Source: Eledone cirrhosa (lineage: Eukaryota). From it: 64,000 bases of DNA. The DNA lies in contig OZ024743.1 in assembly GCA_964016885.1 (NCBI GenBank), forward strand, positions 147,560,001-147,624,000, written 5' to 3'. Shown piece after piece: positions 8,888 to 64,000 of the stretch; within the stretch, counting starts at the first letter, position 1; every line of letters starts with the position of its first letter. A model generated the notes under the pieces. It made no database searches. It had not been told where the DNA came from and was given only the letters and a program-made list of their open reading frames with translations. The translations under genes were made by a program, and so were the position numbers.

Positions 8888-8895
8888 GAGAGAGA

Positions 8896-11076: not shown

Positions 11077-11160
<84 letters not shown>

Positions 11161-22138: not shown

Positions 22139-22424
22139 CGGCAGGCGGCTAGGCTTCAATTAGCATTGGTGTTCCAACATAGCGTTATACACATGTATGT
22201 ACGTGTTGTATATCGAATAATATACGCGATGTTTATGAAAAATATTTGAATGCTATTGGCTATGAATTTTTAAGGTTCTGACCAACGTCACCCATCCAGC
22301 GAAAAGCTTTAAAATCTTTTTCATAACCAACTCGTATATTATTCAGTATATAACACGTACATACATGTGCATAACGCTATTTTGGAGCATCAATACTAAT
22401 ATTTTAAACCCGACTACCTCGCCG
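22139..22424. mobile_element. Old inverted-repeat (MITE-like) element
   Basis: ~125-bp imperfect arms (ATAGCGTTATACACATGTATGTACGTGTT / AACACGTACATACATGTGCATAACGCTAT) around a ~35-bp spacer. Confidence 0.65.
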
Positions 22425-25429: not shown

Positions 25430-25862
25430 CACAAAGAACTCTGACATCCCATCAGGTGTAATGACTCTGGGCTTTGGTGTTGGTATAGAGCAGTGATATC
25501 AGGTCCAATATCTTCTTGGGGATTCCATACGCCTGTAAGATTTTCATCAGGTAGTGATGGACCACAGAATCAAAGGCCTCCCTGAAGTCAATGAAAATCA
25601 TGACAGCAGGAAAGCTCCTTCTAAAATTCTCCTCAGCATCAGGATGCGACTGGTGGTTGATCTTCCCTCTCTGAAGCCGTTCTGGTTGTCTCTGAGCTTC
25701 TTCTCCATCTCGGGCTGGATCCTGTTAGGAATCATCCTGTTGAGGGTCTTTGGTTCAAGCGACGTCAGTGAGATCCCTCTGTAGTTGTTGGTGTTAGAGA
25801 GATCTCCTTTCTTTGGCACTGGGACGATGTTACTGATCCTCCACTTATCCGGGGCAACTCGG
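25430..25862 (-). pseudogene. RTE-like LINE RT fragment, domains 0-3
   Basis: VPKKGDLSNTNNYRGISLTS..K...RI......RDNQNGFREGRST...LRRILE, then FIDFREAFDSV...LQAYGIP...LYTNT. Confidence 0.9.
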
Positions 25863-25869
25863 ACTTTAC

Positions 25870-26070
25870 TGTAGCACAGTTAAGGCTAAACAGATATCAG
25901 ATGCTGAATTTGCTAACGACATAGTTCTGGTGACAAACAGAGTGTATGAGGCAGAGGAGTTGATGCAGGCGGTGGAGACTGTTGATGAGAGTGGGGCTCA
26001 TAATGAATGAGAGTAAGATGAAGTATCTAGTAGACAATATTAAGAAGCCAGAGAAGATTATGAATGTAGC
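25870..26070 (+). pseudogene. RTE-like LINE RT fragment, domains 5-6, inverted relative to the previous piece
   Basis: DAEFANDIVLVT (decayed FADD motif) ... VGLIMNESKMKY. Confidence 0.75.
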
Positions 26071-26565: not shown

Positions 26566-26956
26566 CCGCGCACACGTATGTGTGTATGTATGTATGTGTG
26601 TGTATGTGTGTGTTTATGTAGAAGATTATATATATATATATGTGTTTGTGTGTGTGTAAGTGTGGGGCCTCTGCGTGTGTGAATGCATTTGCTTCGGAAT
26701 TTAAGAAATGAAAATTTTCAAAACCATATATATTATTAGACATCGTCTTTGAGGCAAGGCTTTTACATCATTTATTTTCACATATAAAACAGCAATGTGT
26801 CTGACTATACTTTTCATACATGTTTTTATTCCTATTGAAAATTAACAGAATATGACACAACGAAGTAGACTGCTATATGGTAGTTAGACCTGTTTCAGTT
26901 CGCAGCCAAATTTCCCTCAATCATACTCATTCTGTAGGTATGTATATATATATATT

Positions 26957-27124
26957 AGCTATCGCCGTATTTTGACTAAAGAAATTAAAGAAATTATTTA
27001 ACCTGATAGTAGGGTTAAGAAATGGAAAAAGATGAGTATTGACGTACATATATAGTCAAAATACGGCGATAGCTAACATTTCTAATAATTTCAAATCCAC
27101 TCGCTGTTTCGAAAATATTCTTAC
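26957..27124. mobile_element. Fold-back copy of the tRNA-like 267-bp family
   Basis: Left arm matches 10161-10263; right inverted arm ends ...GAAAATATTCTTAC like 10621; (TA)n on both sides. Confidence 0.8.
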
Positions 27125-27157: not shown

Positions 27158-27829
27158 ATATATATATATATAATAGTAATAAACGAAAGATATATATTTT
27201 ACATCATCTTTATTTTATTATATATATTTCGAAGATGTAAAGTTTTATATATAACATAAAGAAATACATGTCCACTTCAAACAAAATATCTGCCTCCTTT
27301 TTTATTGATTAATATATATATATATATATTAAAGCATATACGATGAGTTTACATATAATACACATGCATGTGTCACGATATAATTGTAGTTATTTGTGAT
27401 CATGTCGTAGATATATGAATAACCGGTGAGAATATCAAACAATTGTTTCTAGATATTTTTCAGATTTATTATTACATGCATTCACTCAGTACAGAGACAC
27501 GCGTTTATTTGCACATGGAATATCCACTATTTATGTTCAGTTGCATATAGCGAGGACTTGACAGGCTAGGATTAATTCAGGCTAGGAATGAATCACAGAC
27601 ATTTCAGTAACGGAGCTGCTTCAGGACAATTATTTATGATCGGTTACATTTACTGAAACTGTATTTAGAAAAGAAAAAAGCTGAACCTTCTATATGTTAT
27701 GCACACGAAACACAAATGAAGATGTTACATTGAAGGGCCACCAGTGGTCGCTTCACATCAAATCACACATTGTTTTTACTTATGTTTTTATTTGAAAATG
27801 AAGGAGAATTTTTCGTAGGGGATAGATGG

Positions 27830-27861: not shown

Positions 27862-27890
27862 CACACACATATATATATATATATATATAG

Positions 27891-28078
27891 TAATTGTTTC
27901 TACTTTTTGGCACAAGGCCAGCAATTACCCAGTATATTACTGGTACTTTATTTTATCGACCTCGTAAGGATGAAAGGCAAAGTTAACCTCGGCGGGATTT
28001 GAACTCAGATCGTAAAGGGACGTAACTATGCTAGAAAGCATGTCTGACCCTCTACCGATACTGCCAATTCACCGCCCT
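27891..28078 (-). mobile_element. tRNA-derived SINE
   Basis: Reverse complement of the SINE consensus. Confidence 0.9.
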
Positions 28079-29479: not shown

Positions 29480-30830
29480 TGTTATTCCATTCAGTTTTTC
29501 TGTTTAGCCTTGGCCTTCTAAGTTCTATTTCGCTGGCCTCTCTGATTTGCCTATCTGCTGGGACATTTCTATGTTTAGATATTATTCTAATTTCTATGTT
29601 TTCTATGTTACCGTCGTGTTGTTGTCTGGCATGTTCGTATAGTACTGAACCGTTTTTTCGTCATTTTAGTTCCCCCTAGTATTGGTCTATCCTTTCACCT
29701 ATGCTACGAGCTGTCTCGCCTATGTATGTTGTTGTCATGTTTCTGCAAGTAACCTCTGTACATCTTATGCTATAGACTACGTTTATGGTTTTACAGTTTA
29801 TCCGGGGATTTACTTTACATATACTACTTTTCCTATTAGTACAGTGGGTTTTCTTAAAAGGGTAGGTTTTGCTGATCAGCGATTTTATGGTGTTTTCTGG
29901 CTTTTCTACCACCTTAATCTTTAAATGGGTCTTTTTCAAGGCCTTTCTACACTGGTTAGCTAATTTCCCTCCAGGGGTAGCGTCCAGAAACATGACACTC
30001 TGGTATCTCTGGTGGTCGTACCATGATGTGGCTTTCCCTATCTTATGTCTAGTCCTATCTAAGCTATTCGATGATTTTCTCCTGTATAATGGGCAAATTC
30101 CTTTCATGTCCAGTTCTATGAGGGTCTTATACTTCTCCGTGGCTCCTTCGTATACTCTGATTCTGTCTCTTTGGTTGTAGCCAGAGAACTGCATGCGGTT
30201 GATGAAGTGTTGGATGTGTCTTTCCGTTTTTGTTGGGTCGCACATGCGGGACACGTTCTTCATCACTCGTACCAAGTCTGCGATCAGAATATTAAACTTA
30301 GCACTACTGGACATTGCTGAGTTTTTGAGTATCAGGTATTTGAGGCCATGGGTTTAGCATAGTGTGAGTGGAGAATTTGGGCTCTCTCGTCTATAGTATT
30401 AATCCAGAGTTCCGTGTCTAATACAGGTATTCTATTGTTAGGGTGTTTGGTAGGGTAGTCGATAGTTACAGTTATACTCTGGTGTATGGAATTAGCTATC
30501 TGCTGGATGCTTTCCATTGTGCTACGTTCTAAATCAAACTTATTAGTACTCTCTTGTGGGGATGTCCTTATTACTATATTGGTGTCGTCTACGTAACGAG
30601 AGTACATGATGAGGTCTATGGAGCTCTCATCAAGGAAATCTTGGAGTCTCCTTTCCCACCATACCATAAAAAGGTTGGCAACGTCAGCAGCTATGCTGAC
30701 GCCAATGGCCGCTCTCTCATTTTAGGAGTAGATCTCGTTGAATTTGAATATGTGGCCCTTTAAGGTAGTTTTGATACTAGCCCCTATTGCATGTGCGACC
30801 ATTTTTCTTACCTGATCATTGTTTTGGGGG
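29480..30830 (-). pseudogene. PLE reverse transcriptase + GIY-YIG endonuclease, frameshifted
   Basis: AIGVSIAADVANLFM, YSRYVDDT, IPVLD, YAKPMAS, RMQFSGY, VVYSIRC...YIGETARS, HARQQH...RQIREA...LNRKTEW (ORFs 30332-30667, 29676-30314 and manual extension). Confidence 0.9.
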
Positions 30831-30980
30831 GTCCGTATAGCTTCATGGAAACGTTCCCTGGCCAAGAACGGAAAAAAACGAAGATAATACGTCAACGAAC
30901 CAAAATATCGTCTTCCTGTCTTCCTTCGGTTGCAACGTTTTTTGAAATATTTACTTCTGCGTTCACAGATTGCCTTTTTT

Positions 30981-31031
30981 AGTTTCAGAAGATCCCGTTA
31001 AGGGTGAAAGCAGCGATTCTTTGCTTAAACT
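30981..31031 (+). ncRNA. Hammerhead-like fold with variant core CAGAAGA
   Basis: AGUUU-CAGAAGA-UCCC(GUUAA)GGGU-GAAA-GCA(GCGAUUCUU)UGC-UU-AAACU. Confidence 0.6.
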
Positions 31032-35231: not shown

Positions 35232-35469
35232 CGATATTAAACAAATGGAGACTATATTTATAAAACCATATTTATTTCATTATACATATTTCAGGGATAC
35301 CATATTAAATATGTATACCACTGAAATATGTATAATGAAATAAATATGGTTTTATAAATATAGTTTCCATTTGTTTAATATCGTATATCTACTCCAAAAC
35401 TTGTTGAGTGCTTTATATCAGTTATAAAATATTTACTCGTTGTAACCCAACAATTTTAAATAAAACTTT

Positions 35470-35472
<3 letters not shown>
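35229..35472. mobile_element. Fold-back mini-copy of the main PLE pseudo-LTR
   Basis: 35229-35293 is the inverse of 35321-35386; the right arm continues to AAAACTTTTAC then (AT)n; matches 54451-54602. Confidence 0.9.
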
Positions 35473-35498: not shown

Positions 35499-35503
<5 letters not shown>

Positions 35504-35681
35504 TGAGATTCTACAGACTACAACAGTTTCATTCTTTAGAAATCATCAGGAATCTGATGATTTCTATAGAATGAAACAGTTCTAGTCCTGTAGAATCTCA
35601 TCTATATTAAAACTTTTATACTGTGCTATGTACTGAGTACCTTACTTACTGTGGTTGCCTCCGATTCAACCCGGAATAACT

Positions 35682-35687
<6 letters not shown>
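35499..35687. mobile_element. Fold-back HHR mini-element (family shared with 61129-61270 and 48985-49055)
   Basis: 35499-35548 is the inverse of 35554-35604; core CUGAUGA-UUUCUAUAGAAU-GAAA-CAGU-UC; (TA)n on both sides. Confidence 0.85.
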
Positions 35688-35754
<67 letters not shown>

Positions 35755-35878
35755 TTTATTAGTTAAGCAAAACAAGACCACAAATTTCACAAGGAAGACA
35801 TTATTAAAAGATTATCAACATATTTAGTTTGATGTAAGGAATGTAGAGAATAATAATAATAATAATATCAATAATAAT

Positions 35879-36277
35879 AATTGTTTCTACTATTGGCACA
35901 ATGCCAGCAAAAACCCAGTACATTACTGGTACTTTATTTTATCGACCCCTTAAGGATGAAAGGCAAAGTCAACATCGGCGGGATTTGAACTCAGTCCGTA
36001 AAGGGACGTAACTGTGCTGCAAAGCATGGCGTCCGACCCTCTACCGATACTGCCAATTCACCGCCCATATTAATAATAATTGTTTCTACTTTAGGCACAA
36101 GGCCAGTAATTACCCAGTGCATTACTGGTACTTTATTTTATCGACCCCGTAAGGATGAAAAGCAAAGTCAACCTCGGCGGGATTTGAACTCAGATCGTAA
36201 AGGGACGTAACTATGTTGGAAAGCATGGCGTCCGACCCTCTACCGATACTGCCAATCCACCGCCAATCCACCGCCCA
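35879..36277 (-). mobile_element. Two tandem tRNA-derived SINEs
   Basis: Reverse-complement consensus at 35879-36066 and 36078-36277, each with an (AAT)n tail. Confidence 0.9.
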
Positions 36278-36730
36278 TATTAATAATAATAATGCCCGTT
36301 TACAATTGTTTCGCTATTCCGTATAATATTTCTGGATCAGATGACTATGTATCATAATTGATCTGGTTCAGTTGAAAATAATTAACATATTTAAAAAAAC
36401 AGAGTGGCTCATCGGAACTCAAAGGAATATAAATTAAAATAATGTTACATAATATAATGTTCCATATATTAGTTTTTACTATTTCCTTGTGAAATGTGTG
36501 GTCTTGTTTTGCTTAACTAATGAATATTTCCAGCTCTGCGCACCTAACCTCTGCATGAACCCAGCCACCTAGCTGCTTTCTACTGCATATTGCACATTGA
36601 GCACATGCCTTTACGCTTTGGCTTCTAACTAACTCACCAATCTTTCCTCTCATATCTCCTCTACTATCTCAATCTCTCTCTTTAAGATTGGTTACTCTTG
36701 AACTGTGTGTATATATATATATATATATAT

Positions 36731-37487: not shown

Positions 37488-38240
37488 ATCATATTTACAT
37501 GCATATATATTTTTGTATAATATCAATATACACACTACACATGCTAGCAGAAAACCACCCGTAGAGGTAGTTTTTCTGCTAGTATAGTTAATGAAAACAG
37601 ACCAGGCGCTAACACACTGATGATTCGATTGTTTCATTCGTTTCACTGTGCCGAATAGTTAAGTAACTTACTTTGTATGTTAAATGTTTTGTCATATTTG
37701 ATAATACATTCAATGAGTTGTCTTCGCAGATATTGTCGGTTTCATAGAGTGGTTGAAGAAATATCTGGTGGCAAATGTAATAGGAGAGTCTAGCAAATAT
37801 TAAACATTTAATTTGTAGTAGTCACTACATTTGTTATGGTTTAAGCAAATGGAGAAGGGCAGCTTTCTTGAAATTTTCAGGATTTTCAACACCAATGGAC
37901 AAAGGGGCTGAGATAAAATTGATCGATGGATCACTACTAACATTTACTTTGAACTATGTAGGTAACCGAGAAGCAATATATATATATATGTATAGGTCAA
38001 ACGTAAAATTGAACAAAGATATATTTAAAGATCATCTTTTACTTTTTACCTCTAACATTGATTTGTATGGAATTTTAAAACCTTTTTTCTATTATATATA
38101 TAGTATTCAACTACAAATAACCTGGCCTCGAAAAGTCATCTTAGTCTATATATAAATATATTTTTTAGCACACAACTATCATATAAATATTTCTTTACGA
38201 TTTTCAGATCTGCAGTCATTATTTCATTTATTCTCCGCAA

Positions 38241-38430
38241 GGGGGGTGGAATGGCAGTATCAGTAGAGGGTCGGACGCCATGCTTTCCAGCATAGTTACG
38301 TCCCTTTACGATTTGAGTTCAAATCCCGCGGAGGTTGACTTTGCCTTTCATCCTTACGGGGTCGATAAAATAAAGTACCACTAATGCACTGGGTAATTGC
38401 TGGCCTTGTGCCTAAAGTAGAAACAATTAT
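38241..38430 (+). mobile_element. tRNA-derived SINE
   Basis: A-box, B-box and family core. Confidence 0.9.
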
Positions 38431-38517
38431 TTCATTAATTCTTTCTTAGAGACCTTTCGTAGCGACGGCAATGGAAAGATTCACACACACACAAATAAAC
38501 ATACATACACATATAGT

Positions 38518-42489: not shown

Positions 42490-42837
<348 letters not shown>

Positions 42838-42961
42838 GTGTAGCTTGCTTGAAGCATTGTTGAATAGGAAACACAAATTTAAATAATTTTGAAAACCAAA
42901 CAATGCATTAGAAAGAAAATTAAATCGCTAAATTAACAAAATTATCTTACCTGAACAAATA

Positions 42962-43143
42962 TAATTGTTTCTACTATTGGCACAAGGCCAGCAATTAACC
43001 AGTAGATTACTGGTACTTTATTTTATCGACCCCGTAAGGATGAAAGGCAAAGTTAACCTCAGCGGGATTTGAACTCAGAATGGCAAGGGCCGTAACTCTA
43101 TGCGTCAATGCATAGCGTCCGACCCTCTACCGATACTGCCAAT
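42962..43143 (-). mobile_element. tRNA-derived SINE
   Basis: Reverse-complement consensus. Confidence 0.9.
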
Positions 43144-43495: not shown

Positions 43496-43725
43496 TAAAT
43501 GTAATCTGAGTTTTTCGAATATTAATAATAACATTCGATTCGTCTGCAACTATGCAAACAAGCCTAATTTTTAACGCCGCCATGTCAGTAGAATGAACCC
43601 TTCATTCTTGCTCTTGTGTTGGCATGTAAACAGAACTGCAGACACTAATTTTTCTGGGTATCACCCTTCATCAGTACAGCTCACTGTCCAGCTGCCAACT
43701 ATCAGAGCTAGTGAAAATATATGCT
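43496..43725 (-). mobile_element. 441-bp HHR family copy with hammerhead at 43633-43682
   Basis: GAGCUGUA-CUGAUGA-AGGGUGAUACCCA-GAAA-AAUUAGUG-UC-UGCAGUUC. Confidence 0.85.
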
Positions 43726-43732
43726 CTCTCTC

Positions 43733-43820
<88 letters not shown>

Positions 43821-44124: not shown

Positions 44125-45150
<1,026 letters not shown>

Positions 45151-45629
45151 CCAAGCACACCTCACGATGCAAATGTGGATATAAGACATTGGGTGCGCGT
45201 AAAAATTCTTTCTAGATTATACAGGAAGAATGGAAAGAGGAGATGGATGTTCTCTTGCGTAGGGCATAACCTAGTAAAAGTGTTTTTTAAGGCAATTTAA
45301 AAAATATGGTCGAATGAATATAGTATTAGTGATTTATCATATAGCATTGTAAAGAAGCGTTGTTTCAGTGGAAGAGGAAAGTATATTAAGAGTTATATGT
45401 GATAGAGCTAGAAACTGTTACATAATCAGGGAGACTTAAAAATAAAACTGTTGGGTTATAGTTAAATTTAATTATAAAACTATTAGACTATTTTGTGAAT
45501 AATATTTAGTGAATAATATTTGTGAATAATATTTAGTGAATAAGACAAAATTAGTTGGGATTTAGTAAAAGGGGGAGGAATTTCTTATGCTAATTATTTA
45601 TATATTAATATATTATTATATTAGTATTT

Positions 45630-45762
45630 TACGGCCCTTTCCATTCTGAGTTCAAATCCCGCCGAGGTCAACTTTGCCTATCATCCTTGCGAGGTCGATA
45701 AAATAAAGAAGCAGCAATGTACTGGTTATTTGCTGGCCTTGTGCCAAAAGTAGAAACAATTA
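45630..45762 (+). mobile_element. 5'-truncated tRNA-derived SINE
   Basis: B-box, core and 3' end. Confidence 0.85.
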
Positions 45763-46052
45763 TATTAGTATTTTAGTGTGCTTGCGTTAGACATAGTTTA
45801 AAAGGCGGGAAGTTCTATCGATTAATACTAGCAGAGTTTACTTAAATTTAACTATTAATATGTTAAACAATTACATATATAACTATTACACTCACATACA
45901 CACACATACACACATGCACACATATACACACGCACACACACACACACACACATACGCACACGCAGACACACACAGACACACATACACACACACACACACA
46001 CACATACATACATACACACACACCCGCGCGCATATATATATTTTTTTTTTTG

Positions 46053-48965: not shown

Positions 48966-48984
48966 ATATATATGTTTATCCCGG

Positions 48985-49055
48985 GTACAATCACGGACTT
49001 TCCTGATGATTTCTACCGAATGAAACAGTTCTACTCCCGTAGAAGCGTGTATTAA
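48985..49055 (+). ncRNA. Degenerate hammerhead of the 35.5-kb family
   Basis: CUGAUGA-UUUC(UACC)GAAU-GAAA-CAGU-UC; stem I imperfect. Confidence 0.55.
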
Positions 49056-50371: not shown

Positions 50372-50376
<5 letters not shown>

Positions 50377-50458
50377 AACCAGTAAGACCCCGACAGCTGA
50401 GCTCAAGCCGTTTCGACGGCTAATTCTGGACCTGGTTCCTTACCACATTTCCTTCGTT
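50372..50458. mobile_element. Internally deleted sister of the 42.6-kb fold-back element
   Basis: Same short inverted arm joined to the same terminal CCTGGTTCCTTACCACATTTCCTTCGTT. Confidence 0.85.
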
Positions 50459-50608
50459 ATATATATATATATATATATGCAAAGTTTTATTTAAATTGTT
50501 GGGTTAACAACGAGTAAATATTTATAACTGATATAAAAGCACTCAACAAGTATTCGGAGTATATTTACGATATTAAATAAATGGAAACTATATTTATAAA
50601 ACCATATT

Positions 50609-50674
50609 TATTTCATTATATATATTTCAGGGATATCATATTAAAAATATGTTATGCCTTCTTCAGACAACATA
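50609..50674 (-). ncRNA. Minimal hammerhead ribozyme in the inverted PLE copy
   Basis: Reverse complement of 54407-54472 with one stem I substitution. Confidence 0.75.
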
Positions 50675-52026
50675 CAATATAAACAGTCTTATAAATACAT
50701 AGATTCGACATACCTTTCAACTTCGACTTCTATTTGAAAAGTTGATTTGGTAGTGAAAAAATATTAGGGACAGTTATAAAAAGAAAGAAAGAAAAACGAA
50801 GAAAAAGAAGAAATGCATGCAACTAAATAGAGAGAGATAGATATAGAGAGATAGATATAGAGAACAAATTAATGTAAAGAAACAGAGAGAGATATATAGA
50901 GATAGGAAAAACACAGAAGGAGATAGATAGAGAGAGAGAGAAGAGAGGAGAGAGAGAGAGAGAAAATATAGAGAGATAGATAGAGATAGAGATAGAGAGA
51001 AAGAAACTAGGTAGTTGGGCACCAGTTGAATGACGTATCAATGATATATTTATTTATTTATTTATTTATTTAGCTCTAGTATTAATGTAGAGAGAGATAT
51101 ATGTGGTTAAGAGAGAAAACAGCCGTTACATAGTGAGAAAAGAAAAATATCCAGGCAAAAACGAGGCAGAATTAAAACACTATGTTTCATCAATGTAAAA
51201 ATATCAATTCGTATAAAACAGGCATTATAATGTAAATATCAGTATTCATGAATGAGACACGTATTAATAATGTGTGAAAAATAATGATCATATGTCTAGT
51301 TTAAAATTTCTAGGTTTATATTAGAGTTGAGATAAAATAGAAGGTTATCCCAGATTTTATACTATATACATCCATGTGAATTTACGTGATCAGCTCTGCA
51401 AATTCCTATTTCACACGAAAACATTCTCATTGTGCTATAAAAATTTAAGTATACATATATGTGTACATACACACAAATATATATAGTCTACATTAATTTT
51501 AACAATACTATTCATGTCTTTACTCTACATTATTATCGTTCAAGCATAAATAGAGAACAGATATCAATATATCAATAAAAATATCAGAAACAAAAAGTAA
51601 ATAAAAAACAAAAAAAACAAAAAAAAAAATAATTAAAAATAAAAATATTAAAAATATTAAAAATATTAAAATAAAAATAAAACATAGTATGCCCCGCAAA
51701 TCAACCACAGAGATCAACCCTTCAAAGTTAATTGACAATATACTGCCAAGTTCGTTATAAGCATCAGAATCAAAAGCAAACAAAACCAAAAATTATTTAC
51801 CAAATCCTGTCTAGCAGAAAACATTCCAAAGGTTTAGGATACCCACTTGATCTACAGATGGTCTTATATTTAATATAGAAGTTTATCTAGTGTAAAATTT
51901 ATTCGATATATTTGGAGGATCAGCTTTTAGGGTAGTTTAATTATTCATGAAGAATGTTTAAAATAAAAAGGAATCGAAAGATTTATCGGCGAGTTTCATA
52001 AATAATTATAAATCAAATTAAATATA

Positions 52027-54203
52027 CTACATTTTAAATTTATAATTATATTTAAAAGTTGAGTTCAATCTATGTCTGCAGCAACTCAATAAATTTGTCC
52101 GTAAATTAAGGGAATTTTTAGATTTTAGTATAAAGAATATCTCCTCCGCGCAGAGGTCACATGTCTCAGAGGATGAATTAAAAGGAATCCCTCTTGAGAC
52201 TATATTCCAAGCCGTTGAATATCCAACGTTATCATGCCTAAGTTGCCAGAGTAGGCCTGATAGTGATGTTGAGGATTTTTTGCTTGGATCTGTGAAAGAA
52301 TTCTTGTGGTTATTATAGCGAAGTTTAAATTCTGTCGAGGTGGAACCAACATAGTTAAAAGAATTTAAGTCCGTTTTAACATTACAGTTGTATATTATAT
52401 TTTTAACTAAGCAATTGTTATTTAACGGACATTTAGATCTATCTCTACAGTTACATTTGTTGACTTGGATATTATTTATGCTATTATCGGTATTTTGGCT
52501 AGGTTTTAAATTCCTATTATTTATTCTATTAATATTTTGTGCTAAATTTTTGGTGGATGAGTAGGTTAATTTTATAGTATGTCTATTGAAAATTGAGTGA
52601 TACCTATGTGTTCTAGGGAAGCGATTATCAAGAGCATTAAAAAATAGTTTAGCGATTGGGTTTTAATGTTTAGTGAGAAAGGGGGGGGGGGGCAAACCAT
52701 ATTATATTCCTAGTTCTATTTCTTTTTTGGCTTTTGGAATTATTGTAATGCTTTCTATTATAGTTGTTAAAGTTGTTGCCGTAATTAAAATTGTTGTTAT
52801 TTTGGTTAGTTTGTCTATTATTATCTATGTACATAATTTTATCACTATATCCTGCTCTAGCTAACGCTTCATTGTAATACTGGGCTTTTTCGTCGAAAAT
52901 CTTTTTATTAGATGAGATTCTAGAGATACGATTTTGAACAGAGTTTACTATAGTATTTTTAACAGATCTGGGGTGGTTAGAGTTAAAGCTGACATAGTTT
53001 AAGTTTTCATTCAACTTGTGAAATGGATAGTGAAGACATGTGTTGAGATTTAATGTTACATCTAGGAAATTGACTATTCTATGGTTATTCTCAATTTCTA
53101 TTTTTAGATTAAAGTAATTAAAAAATTGTGTAATTTGTTTTCTTTTCCTATTTAGTTCAGAGTTATTATTTTCAATAAGTAAAAGCATGTCATCTCTATA
53201 TAAACCTCCGGTAGCACCGGGTATTTTCCTATTCAGCGAATTGATTAAAAATAGGCCCACAAGGTCAGTTACCTGAGCTGAGTCGGATGATCCCATAGTA
53301 ATGTCGAAATTGTTATCTCTATCTGCTCTGGTCCATAGTTGGTCATTAAATTCTATCAGTGTTTTCCTAGCCGATAATATAATGTGCATTTCATTGCTAG
53401 TTAGGTCTGTATGTTTTAATGCGTAATTTAGTGCCTTATTTAGTAGATTAGGGGTAACAGATGAATAATAGTTAGCGATATCTAGTTGAATAAACTTATT
53501 ATTATTGTTATATTTAATTACCTTAAACCACTCAACAACCTCTCCAGTTCCCTTCCACAAGCTCAAGTTAGGTACACAATTCAAGTTTTTAATTTGCTGT
53601 ATCACTCTGTCTAGAATGTTTTTGCTTAGTTTACCCAGTCCGATTTTGATGGTGCAATCAATCTGACTGGCAGGTCATTTTCAAAATTATTTTGTGATCT
53701 TTCATATTGATCTTCGGTTTCCTGGGCACGAAAGGTTGTGTTCTGTTCTCAATTTCCAACTCATGCATTATACAAGATGCCTCAACATTCATTTTCTCAA
53801 GCTCGGCTTTATCTGCTACCTTGTACTTTTTCCTCAGTTCTTTCAGTATTAGGCCATTATACATGTCTTTTTGCACTCCATAGAGGTTGTTGGTCTTGTC
53901 AGATTTCACCAAGATCTTCTCAGTTTTCTCTAAGCTCTCAATATTATCCTTAATGCCTTTCAGATATTCCTGGCCTTTGAAGTTTCTCTTGAATTTGACT
54001 CCTTGTATGATAGAAATTATATCGTTTTCAAAGTCAAATAAAAGTTTGTTGGGGGGTGGATTTCTTTTGGATTTGAAAACTTTGTCTAAGTCCGAGACAT
54101 TTTCATTTATATTAGATTTATCAAAGTGGAATGCACGCCACCTGATTCTCCTTATAAAAGAGTCGGATTTATCTATTAATTGTTTAATAAAGTCTTTGTT
54201 TCT
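52027..54203 (-). pseudogene. Inverted, 5'-truncated, frameshifted copy of the PLE RT/GIY-YIG ORF
   Basis: ORFs 52670-53605 and 53658-53912 are near-identical to the 627-aa protein; indels near 53690, 53640 and 52680. Confidence 0.92.
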
Positions 54204-54602
54204 TTACATGAATTTCTTCTCTATATCTATCTCTCTATATCTATCTCTCTCTATTTAGTTGCATGCATTTCTTCTTTTTCTTCGTTTTTCTTTCTTTCTT
54301 TTTATAACTGTCCCTAATATTTTTTCACTACCAAATCAACTTTTCAAATAGAAGTCGAAGTTGAAAGGTATGTCGAATCTATGTATTTATAAGACTGTTT
54401 ATATTGTATTTTGTCTGAAGAAGGCATAACATATTTTTAATATGATATCCCTGAAATATATATAATGAAATAAATATGGTTTTATAAATATAGTTTCCAT
54501 TTATTTAATATCGTAAATATACTCCAAATACTTGTTGTGTGCTTTTATATCAGTTATAAATATTTACTCGTTGTTAACCCAACAATTTAAATAAAACTTT
54601 GC
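54197..54602 (+). repeat. PLE pseudo-LTR (3'-end copy placed upstream of the ORF)
   Basis: Direct repeat of 58017-58334 plus an ~88-bp extension, followed by a short leader and ATG at 54652. Confidence 0.88.
54407..54472 (+). ncRNA. Minimal type I hammerhead ribozyme in the pseudo-LTR
   Basis: UAUUUUGU-CUGAAGA-AGGCAUAACAUAUU(UUUU)AAUAUGAUAUCCCU-GAAA-UAUAUA-UA-AUGAAAUA. Confidence 0.8.
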
Positions 54603-54651
54603 ATATATCTTGCTCCAATACTGTTGAGCGCTTTATATTATAACTGGAAAA

Positions 54652-54885
54652 ATGGAATTCTTTAAGATTTCTTCCTCTTTAAAAGACATACCTCTACCTA
54701 GAAACAAAGACTTTATTAAACAATTAATAGATAAATCTGACTCTTTTATAAGGAGAATCAGGTGGCGTGCATTCCACTTTGATAAATCTAATATAAATGA
54801 AAATGTCTCGGACTTAGACAAAGTTTTCAAATCCAAAAGAAATCCACCCCCAACAAACTTTTATTTGACTTTGAAAACGATATAA
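54652..54885 (+). CDS. N-terminal part of the PLE ORF, separated from the main ORF by a 1-nt deletion at ~54850
   Basis: MEFFKISSSLKDIPLP...FIRRIRWRAFHF. The C run is C5 here and C6 in the inverted copy; C6 restores one ~740-aa frame. Confidence 0.75.
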   Translation: MEFFKISSSLKDIPLPRNKDFIKQLIDKSDSFIRRIRWRAFHFDKSNINENVSDLDKVFKSKRNPPPTNFYLTLKTI

Positions 54886-54989
54886 TTTCTATCATACAAG
54901 GAGTCAAATTCAAGAGAAACTTCAAAGGCCAGGAATATCTGAAAGGCATTAAGGATAATATTGAGAGCTTAGAGAAAACTGAGAAGATC

Positions 54990-56873
54990 TTGGTGAAATC
55001 TGACAAGACCAACAACCTCTATGGAGTGCAAAAAGACATGTATAATGGCCTAATACTGAAAGAACTGAGGAAAAAGTACAAGGTAGCAGATAAAGCCGAG
55101 CTTGAGAAAATGAATGTTGAGGCATCTTGTATAATGCATGAGTTGGAAATTGAGAACAGAACACAACCTTTCGTGCCCAGGAAACCGAAGATCAATATGA
55201 AAGATCACAAAAGTAATTTTGAAAATGACCTGCCAGTCAGATTGATTGCACCATCAAAATCGCACCTGGGTAAACTAAGCAAAAACATTCTAGACAGGGT
55301 GATACAGCAAATTAAAAACTTGAATTGTGTACCTAACTTGAGCTTGTGGAAGGGAACTGGAGAGGTTGTTGAGTGGTTTAAGGAAATTAAATATAACAAT
55401 AATAATAAGTTTATTCAACTAGATATCGCTAACTATTATTCATCTATTACCCCTAATCTACTAAATAAGGCACTAAATTACGCATTAAAACATACAGACC
55501 TAACTAGCAATGAAATGCACATTATATTATCGGCTAGGAAAACACTGATAGAATTTAATGACCAACTATGGACCAGAGCAGATAGAGATAACAATTTCGA
55601 CATTACTATGGGATCATCCGACTCAGCTCAGGTAACTGACCTTGTGGGCCTATTTTTAATCAATTCGCTGAATAGGAAAATACCCGGTGCTACCGGAGGT
55701 TTATATAGAGATGACATGCTTTTACTTATTGAAAATAATAACTCTGAACTAAATAGGAAAAGAAAACAAATTACACAATTTTTTAATTACTTTAATCTAA
55801 AAATAGAAATTGAGAATAACCATAGAATAGTCAATTTCCTAGATGTAACATTAAATCTCAACACATGTCTTCACTATCCATTTCACAAGTTGAATGAAAA
55901 CTTAAACTATGTCAGCTTTAACTCTAACCACCCCAGATCTGTTAAAAATACTATAGTAAACTCTGTTCAAAATCGTATCTCTAGAATCTCATCTAATAAA
56001 AAGATTTTCGACGAAAAAGCCCAGTATTACAATGAAGCGTTAGCTAGAGCAGGATATAGTGATAAAATTATGTACATAGATAATAATAGACAAACTAACC
56101 AAAATAACAACAATTTTAATTACTCCAACAACTTTAACAACTATAATAGAAAGCATTACAATAATTCCAAAAGCCAAAAAAGAAATAGAACTAGGAATAT
56201 AATATGGTTTGCCCCCCCTTTCTCACTAAACATTAAAACCCACATCGCTAAACTATTTTTTAATGCTCTTGATAATCGCTTCCCTAGAACACATAGGTAT
56301 CACTCAATTTTCAATAGACATACTATAAAATTAACCTACTCATCCACCAAAAATTTAGCACAAAATATTAATAGAATAAATAATAGGAATTTAAAACCTA
56401 GCCAAAATACCGATAATAGCATAAATAATATCCAAGTCAACAAATGTAACTGTAGAGATAGATCTAAATGTCCGTTAAATAACAATTGCTTAGTTAAAAA
56501 TATAATATACAACTGTAATGTTAAAACGGACTTAAATTCTTTTAACTATGTTGGTTCCACCTCGACAGAATTTAAACTTCGCTATAATAACCACAAGAAT
56601 TCTTTCACAGATCCAAGCAAAAAATCCTCAACATCACTATCAGGCCTACTCTGGCAACTTAGGCATGATAACGTTGGATATTCAACGGCTTGGAATATAG
56701 TCTCAAGAGGGATTCCTTTTAATTCATCCTCTGAGACATGTGACCTCTGCGCGGAGGAGATATTCTTTATACTAAAATCTAAAAATTCCCTTAATTTACG
56801 GACAAATTTATTGAGTTGCTGCAGACATAGATTGAACTCAACTTTTAAATATAATTATAAATTTAAAATGTAG
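54990..56873 (+). CDS. Penelope-like reverse transcriptase with C-terminal GIY-YIG endonuclease
   Basis: KSDKT, LDIANYYSSI, FDITMGS, GLYRDD, FLDV, SNHP, CNCR..CPL..CL, IIY...YVGST...FKLRYNNH, CDLC, LN.R.....CRH. Confidence 0.95.
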   Translation: MVKSDKTNNLYGVQKDMYNGLILKELRKKYKVADKAELEKMNVEASCIMHELEIENRTQPFVPRKPKINMKDHKSNFENDLPVRLIAPSKSHLGKLSKNILDRVIQQIKNLNCVPNLSLWKGTGEVVEWFKEIKYNNNNKFIQLDIANYYSSITPNLLNKALNYALKHTDLTSNEMHIILSARKTLIEFNDQLWTRADRDNNFDITMGSSDSAQVTDLVGLFLINSLNRKIPGATGGLYRDDMLLLIENNNSELNRKRKQITQFFNYFNLKIEIENNHRIVNFLDVTLNLNTCLHYPFHKLNENLNYVSFNSNHPRSVKNTIVNSVQNRISRISSNKKIFDEKAQYYNEALARAGYSDKIMYIDNNRQTNQNNNNFNYSNNFNNYNRKHYNNSKSQKRNRTRNIIWFAPPFSLNIKTHIAKLFFNALDNRFPRTHRYHSIFNRHTIKLTYSSTKNLAQNINRINNRNLKPSQNTDNSINNIQVNKCNCRDRSKCPLNNNCLVKNIIYNCNVKTDLNSFNYVGSTSTEFKLRYNNHKNSFTDPSKKSSTSLSGLLWQLRHDNVGYSTAWNIVSRGIPFNSSSETCDLCAEEIFFILKSKNSLNLRTNLLSCCRHRLNSTFKYNYKFKM

Positions 56874-58226
56874 TATATTTAATTTGATTTATAATTATTT
56901 ATGAAACTCGCCGATAAATCTTTCGATTCCTTTTTATTTTAAACATTCTTCATGAATAATTAAACTACCCTAAAAGCTGATCCTCCAAATATATCGAATA
57001 AATTTTACACTAGATAAACTTCTATATTAAATATAAGACCATCTGTAGATCAAGTGGGTATCCTAAACTTTTGGAATGTTTTCTGCTAGACAGGATTTGG
57101 TAAATAATTTTTGGTTTTGTTTGCTTTTGATTCTGATGCTTATAACGAACTTGGCAGTATATTGTCAATTAACTTTGAAGGGTTGATCTCTGTGGTTGAT
57201 TTGCGGGGCATACTATGTTTTATTTTTATTTTAATATTTTTAATATTTTTAATATTTTTATTTTTAATTATTTTTTTTTTTGTTTTTTTTGTTTTTTATT
57301 TACTTTTTGTTTCTGATATTTTTATTGATATATTGATATCTGTTCTCTATTTATGCTTGAACGATAATAATGTAGAGTAAAGACATGAATAGTATTGTTA
57401 AAATTAATGTAGACTATATATATTTGTGTGTATGTACACATATATGTATACTTAAATTTTTATAGCACAATGAGAATGTTTTCGTGTGAAATAGGAATTT
57501 GCAGAGCTGATCACGTAAATTCACATGGTTGTATATAGTATAAAATCTGGGATAACCTTCTATTTTATCTCAACTCTAATATAAACCTAGAAATTTTAAA
57601 CTAGGCATATGATCATTATTTTTCACACATTATTGATACGTGTCTCATTCATGAATACTGATATTTACATTATAATGCCTGTTTTATACGAATTGATATT
57701 TTTTACATTGATGAAACATAGTGTTTTAATTCTGCCTCGTTTTTGTCTGGATATTTTTCTTTTCTCTCTATGTAACGGCTGTTTTCGCTCTTAACCACTT
57801 ATATCTCTCTCTACATTAATACTAGAGCTAAATAAATAAATAAATAAATAAATATATCATTGATACGTCATTCAACTGGTGCCCAACTACCTAGTTTCTT
57901 TCTCTCTATCTCTATCTCTATCTATCTCTCTATATTTTCTCTCTCTCTCTCTCCTCTCTTCTCTCTCTCTCTATCTATCTCCTTCTGTGTTTTTCCTATC
58001 TCTATATATCTCTCTCTGTTTCTTTACATGAATTTCTTCTCTATATCTATCTCTCTATATCTATCTATCTCTATTTAGTTGCATGCATTTCTTCTTTTTC
58101 TTCGTTTTTCTTTCTTTCTTTTTATAACTGTCCCTAATATTTTTTCACTACCAAATCAACTTTTCAAATAGAATTCGAAGTTGAAAGGTATGTCGAATCT
58201 ATCTATTTATAAGACTGTTTATATTG

Positions 58227-58292
58227 TATTTTGTCTGAAGAAGGCATAACATATTTTTAATATGATATCCCTGAAATATATATAATGAAATA
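58227..58292 (+). ncRNA. Minimal hammerhead ribozyme at the PLE 3' end
   Basis: Same sequence as 54407-54472, 3820 nt downstream. Confidence 0.8.
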
Positions 58293-58332
58293 AATATGGT
58301 TTTATAAATATAGTTTCCATTTATTTAATATC

Positions 58333-58386
<54 letters not shown>

Positions 58387-58394
<8 letters not shown>

Positions 58395-58807
58395 AGATCA
58401 AAAGATGGTTAAAGGAGTTCAATATATTTTATTATGCGCATTTCAAAAACAAACATCATCAAACAATAATATTTGTGTTTTCATCAGATAAAACAGGAGA
58501 ACATGATATGAAGGCTAAAAAAACACTTGTTGATAGTGCAGTTTTAAATCAACATATGTTGATTTAAAACTGCACTATCAACAAGTGTTTTTTTAGCCTT
58601 CATATCATGTTCTCCTGTTTTATCTGATGAAAACACAAATATTATTGTTTGATGATGTTTGTTTTTGAAATGCGCATAATAAAATATATTGAACTCCTTT
58701 AACCATCTTTTGATCTTATATTATGCATACTCCAGTCCCACAAACTGTAGAGTGCTTCTTATCCGATATCTGCATTGCTTTATTGTACTACAATAAAACT
58801 CACCTCC

Positions 58808-58810
<3 letters not shown>
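58387..58810. mobile_element. Fold-back HHR element: 338-bp spacerless palindrome plus ~86-bp tail
   Basis: Centre at 58555/58556 (AACAT|ATGTT); arms 58387-58555 and 58556-58724; (TA)n flanks. Confidence 0.92.
58616..58686 (+). ncRNA. Minimal hammerhead ribozyme (mirror copy on the minus strand at 58425-58495)
   Basis: UGUUUUAU-CUGAUGA-stem II-GAAA-UGCGCA-UA-AUAAAAUA; palindromic stem III. Confidence 0.85.
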
Positions 58811-58993: not shown

Positions 58994-59077
<84 letters not shown>

Positions 59078-59189
59078 ATATTAAATAATATCATTGTTAA
59101 TTAAATGTGAAATTGAAGTGGAAGATTTTTTATCCGATCTAATAAATGTGTGTTTATGTTTATACCAGCGTTCTTTGAATTTTGTAGTC

Positions 59190-59616
59190 AACGACAACTC
59201 CAGAAAATGTAACTGTAGAATTAAATAAAACTGCCCTTTACAAAATAAATGCTTAGACAAAAACGTAATTTATAAATGCACAGTTAAAACTAGGGACAAA
59301 GTATTTAACTATATTGGCGCCACTTCTATAAAATTCAAAGAATGCTGGTATAACCATACGCACACATTTAATAGATCTGATAAAAAAATCATCCACTTCA
59401 CTTTCACAATTCATTTGGAACTTAAAAGACAACAATATAGACTATCTCGAAAGCACCTGCATACCGAAATATGGCATTCTCAAGATTCTGTAACTTGTGT
59501 ATCAAGGAAATTTTTTATATAATTAACTGTCAAAATTCTATTAATCTTAAAACAGAATTATTTTCTAGTTGCAGACATAGCAATAATTCCACTTTCAGAA
59601 GTATTTTTAATTTATG
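59190..59616 (+). pseudogene. Decayed PLE GIY-YIG domain (missed by the ORF track)
   Basis: KCNCRIK*NCPLQNKCLDKNVIYKCTVKT....NYIGATS..FKECWYNH...SLSQFIWNLK...CNLCIKEIFYI...INLKTELFSSCRH. Confidence 0.9.
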
Positions 59617-60756
59617 ATATTCATTACACTTGACTATATGTTATACACCTTCAAAATGATCCTATTTTCTTAAAAAATTAAAATTTTTTAAATGATCTTC
59701 CTTCTTAATATTTTTAATATTTCTACTATTTTTACCATTTGACATTAATTTTTTTAATTTTTTAATATATTTTTTTACTATTTTCACCTTTTGATATTAT
59801 TTTCTTAATGATACCCCTCTAAATATATTTTTTTAGATGTAGATTGATAATCTTTTATTGACATTCTGAAAGTTTATCCTCTTTACGATAGTTCTTCGAA
59901 ATGCACATTACTTTTGTCCTTTCAAACTTTCACACATCTTTCGACTAAAATAATATATAATTGGAATTAATCTCACACAAAATAATATATAAATTTCTAT
60001 ATATATTTTCTGAGTAAATCATTCATGAAATTTAACGGTTAACAAACAAGATTGGAGTTATCTTTCCCTTTTCAATCGTGCAAACAGAAACATTATATTA
60101 TAATATAATATGTATGATAAACTATATAACTTCGCTAAATTAACAATATTCTGAAAACATTCTCAATGTGGGAACAAAATATTTGAATCTACAAATTGTT
60201 CTCCTCTTACAACTTGAACTGCGTGTTTTTTTATGTAAAATGCAAAATCAACACCTTCGTAACTCATATTAGAAATGTAAACAACTAATAATTGTAAATT
60301 ATTTCTATTTCAATAATACTTATACATGCACAATTATTAATCTATATAGATATTTATATACTTACAACCTATTGTAATGTAATAAGATAAATTCTTCATA
60401 TAATCTAATTGATTATATATGCAATATTATAACTCATAATATAGCTAAATAAATTTAAATTCTGGAATCATATTCCACCATTCCCGCAAATTGTTAATTC
60501 CTTTTAACTTAACGTAAATACAAGCTCTTCTTTCATGTTTTCCTCTTCCTACTCAGAACATATATCCTATTTATTTAAATTCTGCATAGCGTCTAAAATA
60601 ACGTGTTTTAGCCCTATACCTCAACCTCATTTGCATACTCATCTTAATAATTTTAAATATCTGACTTTCCTTCTCTTTTCCTTCACTATAAAAGAAAACC
60701 TTGAACCGCTAAAGTATCTTTTCTTGGTTATGTTAACATTTATAAAACATACTTTG

Positions 60757-60819
60757 TATTTTATCTGATGAAAGCGTACCAAAGTTTTGGTACCCTTGAA
60801 ATATATATATAATAGAATA
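60757..60819 (+). ncRNA. Minimal hammerhead ribozyme
   Basis: UAUUUUAU-CUGAUGA-AAGCGUACCAAA(GU)UUUGGUACCCUU-GAAA-UAUAUAUA-UA-AUAGAAUA. Confidence 0.82.
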
Positions 60820-60970
60820 AATATGGTTTTATAAATATAGTTTCCATTTATTGAATATCATTGAATATTATACTCCAAAATCTGTCGAGTGCTCTGAATC
60901 AGTTCTAAACATTGATATTTGCTGAATAACCAACAAATTGAATATCCCTTTTGCTTTTATATATATATAA

Positions 60971-61084
60971 TGAATAGGTCCGAGCATTTTATAATAACCT
61001 GAAATTGAAACAATCACAGGTGATAATTATCACCTGTGATTGTTTCATATGTTTATTTATATGTTAATCAATTTCTAGTTGTTA
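60971..61084. mobile_element. Fold-back fragment of the 9.1-10.0 kb family
   Basis: Central palindrome GAAACAATCACAGGTGATAATTATCACCTGTGATTGTTTC; arms match ~9785-9860. Confidence 0.75.
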
Positions 61085-61128: not shown

Positions 61129-61270
61129 AAATGAGATTCTACAGGACTAGAACTGTTTCATTCATGAGAAATCATCAGGAATCTCATCTATATTAAAACG
61201 TATATACACTGCTTTGTATTGAGTCCCTTACTTACTGTGGTTACTTCCCATTCAATGCGGAATAACTTAC
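61129..61270. mobile_element. Fold-back sister of the 35.5-kb element
   Basis: Inverted HHR arm joined at GAATCTCAT to the same terminal ...GGAATAACTTAC. Confidence 0.85.
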
Positions 61271-61887: not shown

Positions 61888-61916
61888 TGCGTGTGTGTGT
61901 GTGTGTGTGTGTGTTA

Positions 61917-62954
61917 AATATAATCTGAGTTTTTCGAATAGTAATAATAACATTCGTTCGCAATTATGCAAACAAGCCTCAATTTTATAGCTATGTCAGT
62001 AGAATGAACTCTTCATTCGTGCTCTTGTGTTGGCATGCGAACAGAACTGCAAACACTAATGTTTCTGGGCATCTCCCTTCATCAGTACAGCTCACTGTTC
62101 ACCTGCCAAACTGTCAGAGCTAGTGAAAATATATGCTATTTTCAAAAATAAACAGTGACTGATTTGCCTGATTTTGCATATTAGTAAACTGGTTGATCAG
62201 TCAGATCTGCACATTAGCAGATCCACTGATCAGTCAGATTTGCTTATCAGTAGACTGGCTAGTTAGTTTCCTGTATACAAGCGATAAATGGCTGGCTTTG
62301 TCAAATTCAAATGAAAAAGAAAATGTCGATCTACATGGCTGAATACAATAAATGTAATCTGAGCTTTTCGAATATTAATAATAACATTCGATTCATTTGC
62401 AATAATGCAAACAAGCCTCAATTTTATAGCCATGTCAGTAGAATGAACACTTAATTCTCTTGCACTTGTGTTGGCATGCGAACAGAACTGTAAACACTAA
62501 TGTTTCTGGGCATCACCCTTCATCAGTACAGCTCACTGTTCACCTGCCAAACTGTCAGAGCTAGTGAAAATATATGCTATTTTCAAAAATACACAGTGAC
62601 TGATCGGCATAATTTGCACATTAACAGACTGGTTGATCAGTCAGATCTGCATATCAGCAGATCCACTGATCAGCCAGATTTGCATACCAATGTAAACTTG
62701 AGGCTTGTTTGCGTAATTGCAAACGCAAGAGAGTCGGACATGCTTTCCAGCTTAGTTACGTTCCTTTACGATCTGAGTTCAAATCCCGCCGAGATTAACT
62801 TAGCCTTTCATCCTTACGGGTTAGATAAAATAGAGTACCAGTAATGTACTAGGTAATTGCTGGCTTTGTGCCAAAAGTAGAAAGAATTATTAATATTCGA
62901 ACAACTCAGATTACTTTTATTGTATTCAGGCATGTACAGCGGAATTTTCTTTTA

Positions 62955-63040: not shown

Positions 63041-63084
<44 letters not shown>

Positions 63085-64000
63085 ATAGGGAGAAAAAGAC
63101 GAATAATAGGAAGAAAAAAAGTTTTTTTTCCCTTTTTATCTTTTTTTTTTCTAGGTTAGAAAATGTTTAAAACAAAATATTTTACTTTGTGTGAAGTGTT
63201 AAGGAATTAGTTAATTAATTTATTAATTAACAATGGCATTTATTTATTTATTTATATATTTAATAATTGTCTATTACCGGTTTCAGCATTTTATACATTA
63301 TCAATAGGGGGAATTTGTGTTGGTGTAAAATGTTGGTGATGTTGAATATGCTAAGGAAATGGTGAAGAAAGAATAATGTTATTTTCAAACAAGGTTTTTT
63401 TCTCCCTATTTTCATATATATATATAAGGATTAATATTTTGAAGTAATATATATATATATATATATATAGTAAGTACATGGTCGGAAGTACATATATAAT
63501 ATATATATACATATATATATATACATATATATATATATTTTTTTTTATATATTTATATATATATGTATATATATGTATATATATATATATATGTACTTCC
63601 GACCACCCCACCACTAATAATACTAAAAATCCCCTCACCCACCTTCTTCCTCACCACACACACACACACTCATACCCAAACACGCACACACACACCATTA
63701 CTATACACTCACTCATACTGTCCCCAGCACCATCTCTCTCTCTCTCGCACTAACAACACCCCGCACTACCAACACCCACCCACACACATCCCACTAACAC
63801 CTCCCCTAATATACACACAAATCCCCCATTCTCCGCCACCCTCTCCCTCAACCTTTCACACATGCCCATCCCCCTTGTCCACCGCACCTCCGCACGCACA
63901 TACACACATTCCACACCACATACAGATCATCTCTAGCACTCGTCCGTCTGTCTTCCTCCCTACCACTGCCTGCTTGTCACCTTCCTACTGCTATCTCCTT

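Follow-up and report, generated by a model that had tools for sequence, protein, structure and literature searches.

A 64,000-nt stretch of Eledone cirrhosa DNA (assembly GCA_964016885.1, contig OZ024743.1, positions 147,560,001 to 147,624,000 of the forward strand; hereafter the window, with position 1 its first letter) contains a Penelope-like element (PLE) at 50479-58333 that is almost certainly a recent single insertion of an autonomous Hydra-clade retrotransposon into a (TA)n tract. Its two arms stand head to head, one ending in a tail and the other without one, and the same pairing of unlike ends recurs among its small neighbors. On balance, we attribute this structure to twin target-primed reverse transcription, in which both strands of the (TA)n tract would act as primers, one for each of two start sites, and the resulting complementary DNAs (cDNAs) would be joined by microhomology.

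Layout of the element

The element is bounded on both sides by (TA)n tracts. The left tract (50458-50478) doubles as the right flank of a small insertion at 50375-50457, and the right tract (58334-58389) doubles as the left flank of another at 58390-58810. Self-comparison of the window using BLAST gave one long inverted repeat (50560-54203 versus 58341-54700, 99.1% identical over 3648 columns), plus a 416-bp inverted repeat and a 329-bp direct repeat that both involve 54193-54608. The unit length is 3820 nt, with 1460 nt between the stop codon and the proximal end. Three copies of the pseudo-long terminal repeat (pLTR) are present, one of them inverted, and a tail is found at one outer end.

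The inverted arm (50479-54203, minus strand) is 5′-truncated, begins at codon 17, and carries the open reading frame (ORF) in three pieces followed by the 3′ untranslated region (UTR) and a tailed pLTR. The tail (50479-50567, minus strand) is ~89 nt long, lies between the proximal and distal end sites, and is opened by a bulged hairpin (50541-50560, minus strand) composed of ACTC, a 3-bp helix, a 2-nt bulge and GAGT. The hammerhead motif of this pLTR spans 50609-50674 on the minus strand. To the right of the inversion junction (54197-54203), all features are on the plus strand. These are an upstream pLTR (54197-54603), which is a 5′-truncated tandem copy with a tail at 54514-54603 and one private change in its hairpin; a 5′ leader (54604-54651), which repeats the start of the tail in diverged form; the ORF for a reverse transcriptase (RT) and endonuclease (54652-56873); a long AT-rich 3′ UTR (56874-58016); and a downstream pLTR (58017-58333), which is tailless and stops at the proximal site.

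The original prediction described a head-to-head palindrome with nearly identical arms of about 3.6 kb. The inverted arms are present and measure ~3.63 kb, but they do not form a true palindrome. Between them is a spacer of 496 bp (54204-54699) made up of the third pLTR copy, the leader and the start of the ORF, the ends are unequal (the right end has no counterpart of the ~89-nt tail on the left), and each arm carries sequence that is absent from its partner. After trimming of TA repeats, alignment of the reverse complement of 54203..50567 with 54700..58334 gave 3610 matches, 21 substitutions (7 transitions and 14 transversions) and 6 indel events. The Jukes-Cantor (JC) divergence of 0.0058 supports a recent insertion, as had been proposed. 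Using an octopus calibration of 0.09 per 25 million years (My; PMC13282606), the insertion is about 0.8 My old, assuming an octopus host and that every difference between the arms is real. Part of this divergence may be sequencing error, which would make the true age younger, whereas conversion between the arms would make it older.

The junction sequence TGTTTCT (54197-54203) matches the antisense of the ORF start, being the reverse complement of 54700-54706, and recurs in the 3′ pLTR at 58017, so the 7-nt microhomology that had been predicted for this site is confirmed; the match extends to 10 of 11 nt if one mismatch is allowed. Among 200,000 head-to-head junctions placed at random in this element, only 0.13% had an overlap of at least 7 nt. 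When the three pLTRs were compared, each had private changes of its own (4 in the left, 1 in the middle and 3 in the right copy, the two tail changes being polarized by related families), and these do not reveal the template used by either arm.

Protein and clade

The first in-frame ATG is located at 54652, after a stop at 54625, and the frame ends with the stop codon at 56873. It comprises 740 codons when read through a single −1 frameshift at 54847-54851, where the forward arm has a run of five C residues and the left arm has six; both the 1-nt deletion and the ~740-aa length are as originally predicted. In the inverted arm, codons 1-16 are missing and the frame contains four further indels, near 53689, 53638, 52692 and 52656, again in accord with expectation. 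Because 5 of the 6 indels between the arms fall within the 2.17-kb coding part, several of them in homopolymers, the break in the C run may be a sequencing error and the forward copy intact.

The protein includes a telomerase-related RT with its catalytic aspartates in place. In the RT core (55410-55860, plus strand), the motif A aspartate (near 55422) and the YRDD motif (near 55704) are conserved across 45 aligned proteins. A structure model of the 673-aa frame had a predicted local distance difference test (pLDDT) score of 85, and its best fold match in the PDB was TERT (3du5; E 7e-9, template modeling (TM) score 0.36), with bacterial RTs close behind. Neither piece of the ORF matched any Pfam family at E 0.1, and a PDB sequence search using the 45-protein profile returned 0 matches. 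A protein search yielded 57 relatives at 31-42% identity among 8000 candidates scored, including one from Octopus bimaculoides. An unusual motif-B variant looks lineage-specific rather than a lesion, because the Octopus bimaculoides protein has it too. An Asn-rich in-frame insert (56079-56186, plus strand) was modeled with low confidence; the segment that holds it is 47 aa long, compared to 19-27 aa in 43 of 44 homologues.

The C-terminal region (56445-56828, plus strand) has a CxCX5C linker (residue 599) and a predicted GIY-YIG-type endonuclease within the same single ORF. CxxC (residue 697) and CxH (residue 724) are present, CCHH was not found, and a single Cys lies between the two Tyr motifs of the endonuclease. 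The residues IIY...YVG, R, H, E and N match conserved columns, as well as the published Hydra alignment when compared by eye.

Clade assignment followed the diagnostics given for Hydra by Craig et al. 2021 (PMC8557442). The motifs point to Hydra: RWR at residue 37 (a conservative variant of RWK), DKT at residue 118 (DKG occurs in 0 of the 45 aligned proteins), CxCX5C, the CxxC/CxH pair without CCHH, a hammerhead motif, and (TA)n adjoining both ends, as is characteristic of Hydra insertions. The pLTRs derive from a partial tandem and are accompanied by an inverted copy (optional in this group) and a tail, as in endonuclease-positive (EN+) PLEs generally. The predicted Penelope-like, (TA)n-targeting RT-endonuclease is therefore supported by the motifs and by the (TA)n ends. 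Naiad and Chlamys elements (N-terminal endonuclease, DKA, no canonical hammerhead) were excluded by the C-terminal endonuclease, DKT and the hammerhead motif, and Penelope/Poseidon, Neptune and Nematis by the absence of both DKG and CCHH. A selenoprotein of the Naiad type was ruled out by a forward frame that has no internal stop.

Like other members of the clade, including Hydra-1_Obim of Octopus bimaculoides, the element has a single ORF of ~700-740 aa with the shared motifs, a hammerhead near its 3′ end, and (TA)n. Hydra-1_Obim nevertheless differs from it at most protein positions (by eye) and in ribozyme sequence, and the published Hydra-1_Obim consensus has no pLTR, whereas both pLTR ends are defined here. 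Hydra elements are described as generally <3 kb, a descriptive trait and not a diagnostic one; the unit here is 3.8 kb, with a 1.46-kb 3′ region, the Asn-rich insert and a real pLTR. Note also that the tail is ~89 nt, versus the 30-40 bp usually cited. The element is a new, near-intact family of a known clade in the usual layout.

Hammerhead motif

Hammerhead cores are found in all three pLTRs, at 54415 (plus), 58235 (plus) and 50666 (minus). In the upstream pLTR, a type I motif (54407-54472, plus strand) was parsed manually into a long stem II (54422-54452), a palindromic 8-nt stem III (54456-54463), a predicted cut after 54464 and an 8-bp stem I with two G-U pairs. The core, stems I to III and cut site parse as in the Hydra table of the PMC8557442 supplement. 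A palindromic stem III is the dimer-dependent hammerhead form of animal PLEs (PMC4209133), and a neighboring family in the window replaces stem III with a different palindrome, which constitutes covariation. Rfam did not detect a hammerhead at the locus, and there was none among the 150 of 257 matches listed for the window, which were dominated by microsatellite hairpins scored as microRNAs. Because free-energy folding did not give the hammerhead as the minimum, either as monomer or as dimer, assignment of a canonical hammerhead near the 3′ end, and thus of a putative ribozyme, rests on motif parsing and covariation.

Both insertion ends fall beyond the predicted cut, which suggests that the template was uncut or circular RNA. 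A circular RNA would account for ends past the cut, and a read-through RNA would do so equally. For PAc, the Poseidon element of Anolis (Frangieh et al. 2024, PMC11167929), ribozyme mutants still insert in vitro.

Pairing of tailed and tailless ends

Neighboring insertions were sought in the segments between 104 merged (TA)n runs, then among all inverted pairs within 9 kb, and then with family seeds; all counts apply to the window. The small elements represent about eight families that differ in ribozyme and tail sequences. Only three resemble the pLTR of the large element (about 92%, 80% and 75%), and one family has an endonuclease remnant of its own. The most plausible reading is that the small elements are truncated insertions from several autonomous families and not passengers of the large element, and the suggestion that the large family drives them was not substantiated.

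Every double-ended insertion for which both ends could be assigned (13/13) pairs one proximal (tailless) end with one distal (tailed) end. These are 50479-58333, 35232-35472, 35502-35686, 61130-61270, 42604-42781, 50375-50457, 58390-58810, 59073-60957, 10147-10621, 26956-27124, 60970-61082, 11157-11341 and 48974-49055. At the most favorable null of 0.5, the binomial p is 1.2e-4. A probable fourteenth case (61915-62953) was excluded from the count because its arms are separated by a SINE (short interspersed nuclear element) and (TG)n flanks it on one side. In four insertions (50375, 61130, 26956 and 48974), the arms correspond to different or barely overlapping parts of the parent, so neither arm, as it stands, was copied from the other. 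The insertion at 11157-11341 is a head-to-head join of homologous but diverged hammerhead-bearing ends (40/59 identical, above all 1000 shuffles) and would imply two different RNA templates if it arose in one event. The tailless arm reaches further 5′ in seven cases, with one against and five near-ties (p 0.07); this trend was not relied on because the tailless arm starts ~89 nt ahead in any case.

These insertions and their relatives are diverse. The one at 58390-58810, which adjoins the large element via (TA)n, belongs to another hammerhead-bearing family and is a perfect 338-bp palindrome with a ~87-nt right tail. Young insertions of a single family are found at 50375-50457 and 42604-42781, with arms 100% identical between the loci; in the former, the arms, which are separated by 4 untemplated bases, derive from parts of the parent that do not overlap. 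Another family with a compact canonical hammerhead contributes the head-to-head insertions at 35502-35686, 61130-61270 and 48974-49055, whose junctions lie at stem I of the ribozyme in 2 of 3 cases. The pLTR relatives of the large element at 35232-35472 (about 92%, double-ended) and 8341-8714 (about 80%, one assignable end, changed ribozyme core) use the same two end sites. An older second Hydra family is represented at 59073-60957 by an endonuclease remnant (59166-59599, 70% DNA identity), a long 3′ UTR, a hammerhead and a tail; its inverted arm joins ~17 nt of pLTR to 90 nt of endonuclease sequence, and it is possibly an eroded palindrome.

The small family at 10147-10621 and 26956-27124 has pLTR-like ends and a ~40-nt tail, and a hammerhead was not seen. 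The first of these two insertions has a tRNA-like body (10253-10325, minus strand) in a layout like that of the large element, making it a candidate tRNA-derived PLE passenger. In another family (8850-9084, 43498-43782 and 61915-62953), the two end sites are separated by ~35 nt and half of a hammerhead-like core is present; the insertion at 61915-62953 appears to be double-ended and to enclose a SINE. Further short PLE-like ends with (TA)n flanks lie at 8068-8290, 27173-27311, 37990-38092 and 60970-61082. There is a clear hammerhead core at 8172 (minus strand), and 60970 is double-ended with a relative at 9209.

Tail hairpin

Immediately beyond the proximal site, a hairpin is present in most families that carry a hammerhead; its lower helix is 4 bp long and its upper helix 2-4 bp, with a bulge of 2 nt on the 3′ side. 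The sequence of the upper helix differs among several families, again as covariation, and shuffling gave p values of 0.05, 0.002, 0.001 and 0.005 in four unrelated families. A strict version of the pattern matches 13 times in the window, compared to a shuffled mean of 2.4 (maximum 11). Seven matches are sense copies in tails or the leader, three are antisense reads of these hairpins themselves, and three are unrelated. The ORF leader resembles the start of the tail (E 2e-4; 1 of 1000 shuffles was as good), and its hairpin (54612-54629) is preserved through a compensatory pair. By eye, the motif is complete in the published Hydra-2_Amil sequence and contains a single mismatch in Hydra-1_Crog; two published Hydra consensus sequences stop short of this position.

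Mechanism of insertion

Any mechanism must account for the anatomy, motifs, unequal ends, microhomology and one-tailed/one-tailless pattern that are directly visible in these insertions. Twin target-primed reverse transcription is favored because all of these structures follow from it without extra steps. The protein would nick both strands of the self-complementary (TA)n tract, and each 3′ end would prime cDNA synthesis inside a pLTR of read-through RNA, one starting at the proximal site (the position of 54513 and 58333) and the other at the distal site ~89 nt further on, with each start assisted by short TA pairing of a few bases. The right cDNA (4.1 kb) would run through the ORF and leader into the upstream pLTR, and the left cDNA would extend 3.7 kb. 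Their 3′ ends, complementary over 7 nt, would then anneal and each would be copied on the other. Either one RNA, with strand displacement, or two could serve, and the bulged hairpin past the proximal site may be an RNA handle that positions the protein. In L1 twin priming, the second target strand primes internally and the cDNAs join by microhomology to produce an inversion; these cDNAs derive from neighboring segments of a single RNA, and only a minority of insertions are inverted. Unlike in L1, both cDNAs here would start in the pLTR and can overlap by kilobases, and the pattern looks routine.

Twin priming gains support by analogy from PAc, since the purified protein cleaves and extends both target strands, starting at two internal sites that delimit the tail; it is a predicted dimer and its target is AT-rich (PMC11167929). 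However, PAc belongs to another clade, the start of its ORF is inside the pLTR, and its start sites are in an AC-rich stem-loop without homology to the target, whereas here the ORF starts 48 nt beyond the tail and both ends adjoin TA. As a broader and tentative proposal, which we hold to be somewhat short of an even chance, inverted PLE insertions may arise as a rule by coupled two-strand priming at two internal sites, in Hydra positioned by a conserved bulged tail hairpin, from coral and copepod to octopus.

Self-priming has been proposed previously to account for head-to-head repeats whose junctions are palindromic (PMC3846280, Discussion). Antisense RNA would fold back at a short complementary stretch and prime a sense copy, and the endonuclease would trim and insert the hairpin to leave a one-ended tail. 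Self-complementary stretches at the junctions of 42604, 58390, 60970 and 35232 fit such a process, as does a loop that belongs to one arm, which it predicts and which is seen in the large element. We nonetheless consider self-priming unlikely. It requires extra trimming at a fixed site, cannot yield arms from two subfamilies (11157), and differs from the sense-template priming from nicked DNA, at two tail-matching sites, observed in vitro (PMC11167929). Similarly unlikely is a single priming event after which the first cDNA folds back on the 7-nt match and strand transfer to the upstream pLTR supplies the tail. The partner 7-mer is indeed present in the right-arm cDNA, as is a direct repeat of 317 nt through which transfer could take place, and a long tailless arm with an internal tailed pLTR is also present at 10147-10621 and probably at 61915-62953. 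However, the copy must end exactly at the distal site, and, barring later deletions, there is no source for the tail in insertions that lack an internal pLTR and whose tailless arm is the longer one (50375, 61130, 26956 and 48974). Some weight is kept on both self-priming and fold-back because later central deletions could mimic non-overlapping arms.

It is quite improbable that the head-to-head copies arose by separate insertions into one (TA)n tract or by rearrangement after insertion. Although (TA)n tracts are hot spots and other insertions adjoin both ends of the large element, its junction has no TA tract, its arms are 99.4% identical, and independent events would not so regularly pair proximal with distal ends. 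Least probable is an assembly or library artifact, either a fold-back read or a mis-join, that doubled one real copy. The concentration of indels in coding and homopolymeric sequence would suit such an error, as would the excess of transversions, although it is not significant (Fisher p 0.16 against other repeat pairs in the window, a comparison of substitution spectra for error versus mutation). The limits of the inversion coincide with those of the element, and the otherwise unrelated flanks have just one unrelated 100-bp repeat in common (77%), which makes an artifact unlikely. Moreover, the end asymmetry is family-specific, and the layout matches that of published PLEs (PMC8557442) and of a dozen small neighbors.

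Several observations count against coupled priming and its positioning by the hairpin. The evidence comes from a single 64-kb window, and p rises to 0.004 (13/15) if 44125-44558 and 63081-63413 are counted as exceptions. The former, a symmetric palindrome of 434 bp centered on (TC)n(TA)n(AG)n, with (TA)n flanks and arms 98% identical, in which a ribozyme was not found, is a possible exception to end pairing. Three calls are weak: 59073 (a 16/17-nt end match), 48974 (~27 nt at ~80%) and 11157 (arms from different subfamilies). Three of the 13 insertions are in families without a visible hammerhead that are perhaps not Hydra, at least four others have one assignable end only (8068, 8341, 27173 and 37990), and 22159-22400 is an old palindrome away from TA. 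Five junctions are in or at self-complementary sequence, which self-priming fits equally well, and non-overlapping arms could also result if a longer palindrome lost its center once inserted. The start sites of PAc in vitro are equal between strands and not homologous to the target (PMC11167929), whereas short TA pairing is presumed here. With regard to the hairpin, the pattern was defined post hoc, after the data had been seen; the structure is weak in the 35502/61130 family (p 0.14 and 0.48) and, by eye, in the published Hydra-1_Amil sequence, and it is not the lowest-energy fold in every copy.

Other repeats in the window

A decayed non-Hydra PLE at 29676-30997 (minus strand) retains a YVDD-containing RT fragment and a C-terminal endonuclease whose Tyr motifs flank two Cys; related ends are found at 24640, 28178, 31060 and 46162. 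The repeats at 63081-63413 (17-bp), 35749-36521 (~39-bp) and 22159-22400 (78% self-complementary) are terminal-inverted-repeat elements or old fold-backs, probably resembling miniature inverted-repeat transposable elements (MITEs). Fragments at 25452-25879 and 468-809 read like RT of the long interspersed nuclear element (LINE) type, which we presume to be their family. A dispersed SINE-like repeat of ~150-200 bp (88-94% identity) is present at 5022-5180, 19162-19362, 27873-28068, 35872-36264, 38241-38439, 42955-43141, 45629-45769 and 62739-62897, and we take it to be typical of octopus genomes.

Relation to published elements and significance

The head-to-head layout itself is not new, because PMC8557442 and PMC3846280 describe it, and a reading of it as unusual is not supported. 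An inverted 5′-truncated copy beside the upstream pLTR is a frequent PLE arrangement, with the tail often at one end only (PMC8557442, Fig. 2 legend). Penelope-13_HM, a Hydra element, is listed with an attached inverted copy (PMC8557442 supplement), and Pen2a of the rotifer Adineta vaga has the same layout plus Asn-rich inserts (PMC3846280) similar to the short one found here. The element shares with all of these the inverted truncated copy at the upstream pLTR, the one-ended tail and the head-to-head orientation, although its inverted copy is nearly full length (3.7 kb) and thus at the long end of the range. In the accessible descriptions, the pairing of one tailed with one tailless end is given as occurring “often” or “optionally”, and is neither counted nor tied to two priming events. 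Our literature search, which was thin on subscription journals, found no paper that counts PLE end pairing, proposes PLE twin priming or describes a Hydra tail hairpin. For octopus, 336 recent Penelope-like insertions in 31 families have been reported (PMC13282606).

The Hydra clade has been thinly sampled, and the element adds to it a near-intact family in which both ends of the pLTR are defined. The formation of tandem and inverted PLE structures has been named an open question (PMC8557442), and the steps after initiation are described as “yet to be validated” (PMC11167929). Together, end pairing and the tail hairpin make a prediction for which any long-read genome would supply counts and an existing in vitro assay a test. 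If true, coupled priming would explain head-to-head repeats, the one-sided tail and second-strand synthesis in one step, and the near-intact element would be a ready reagent for testing it.

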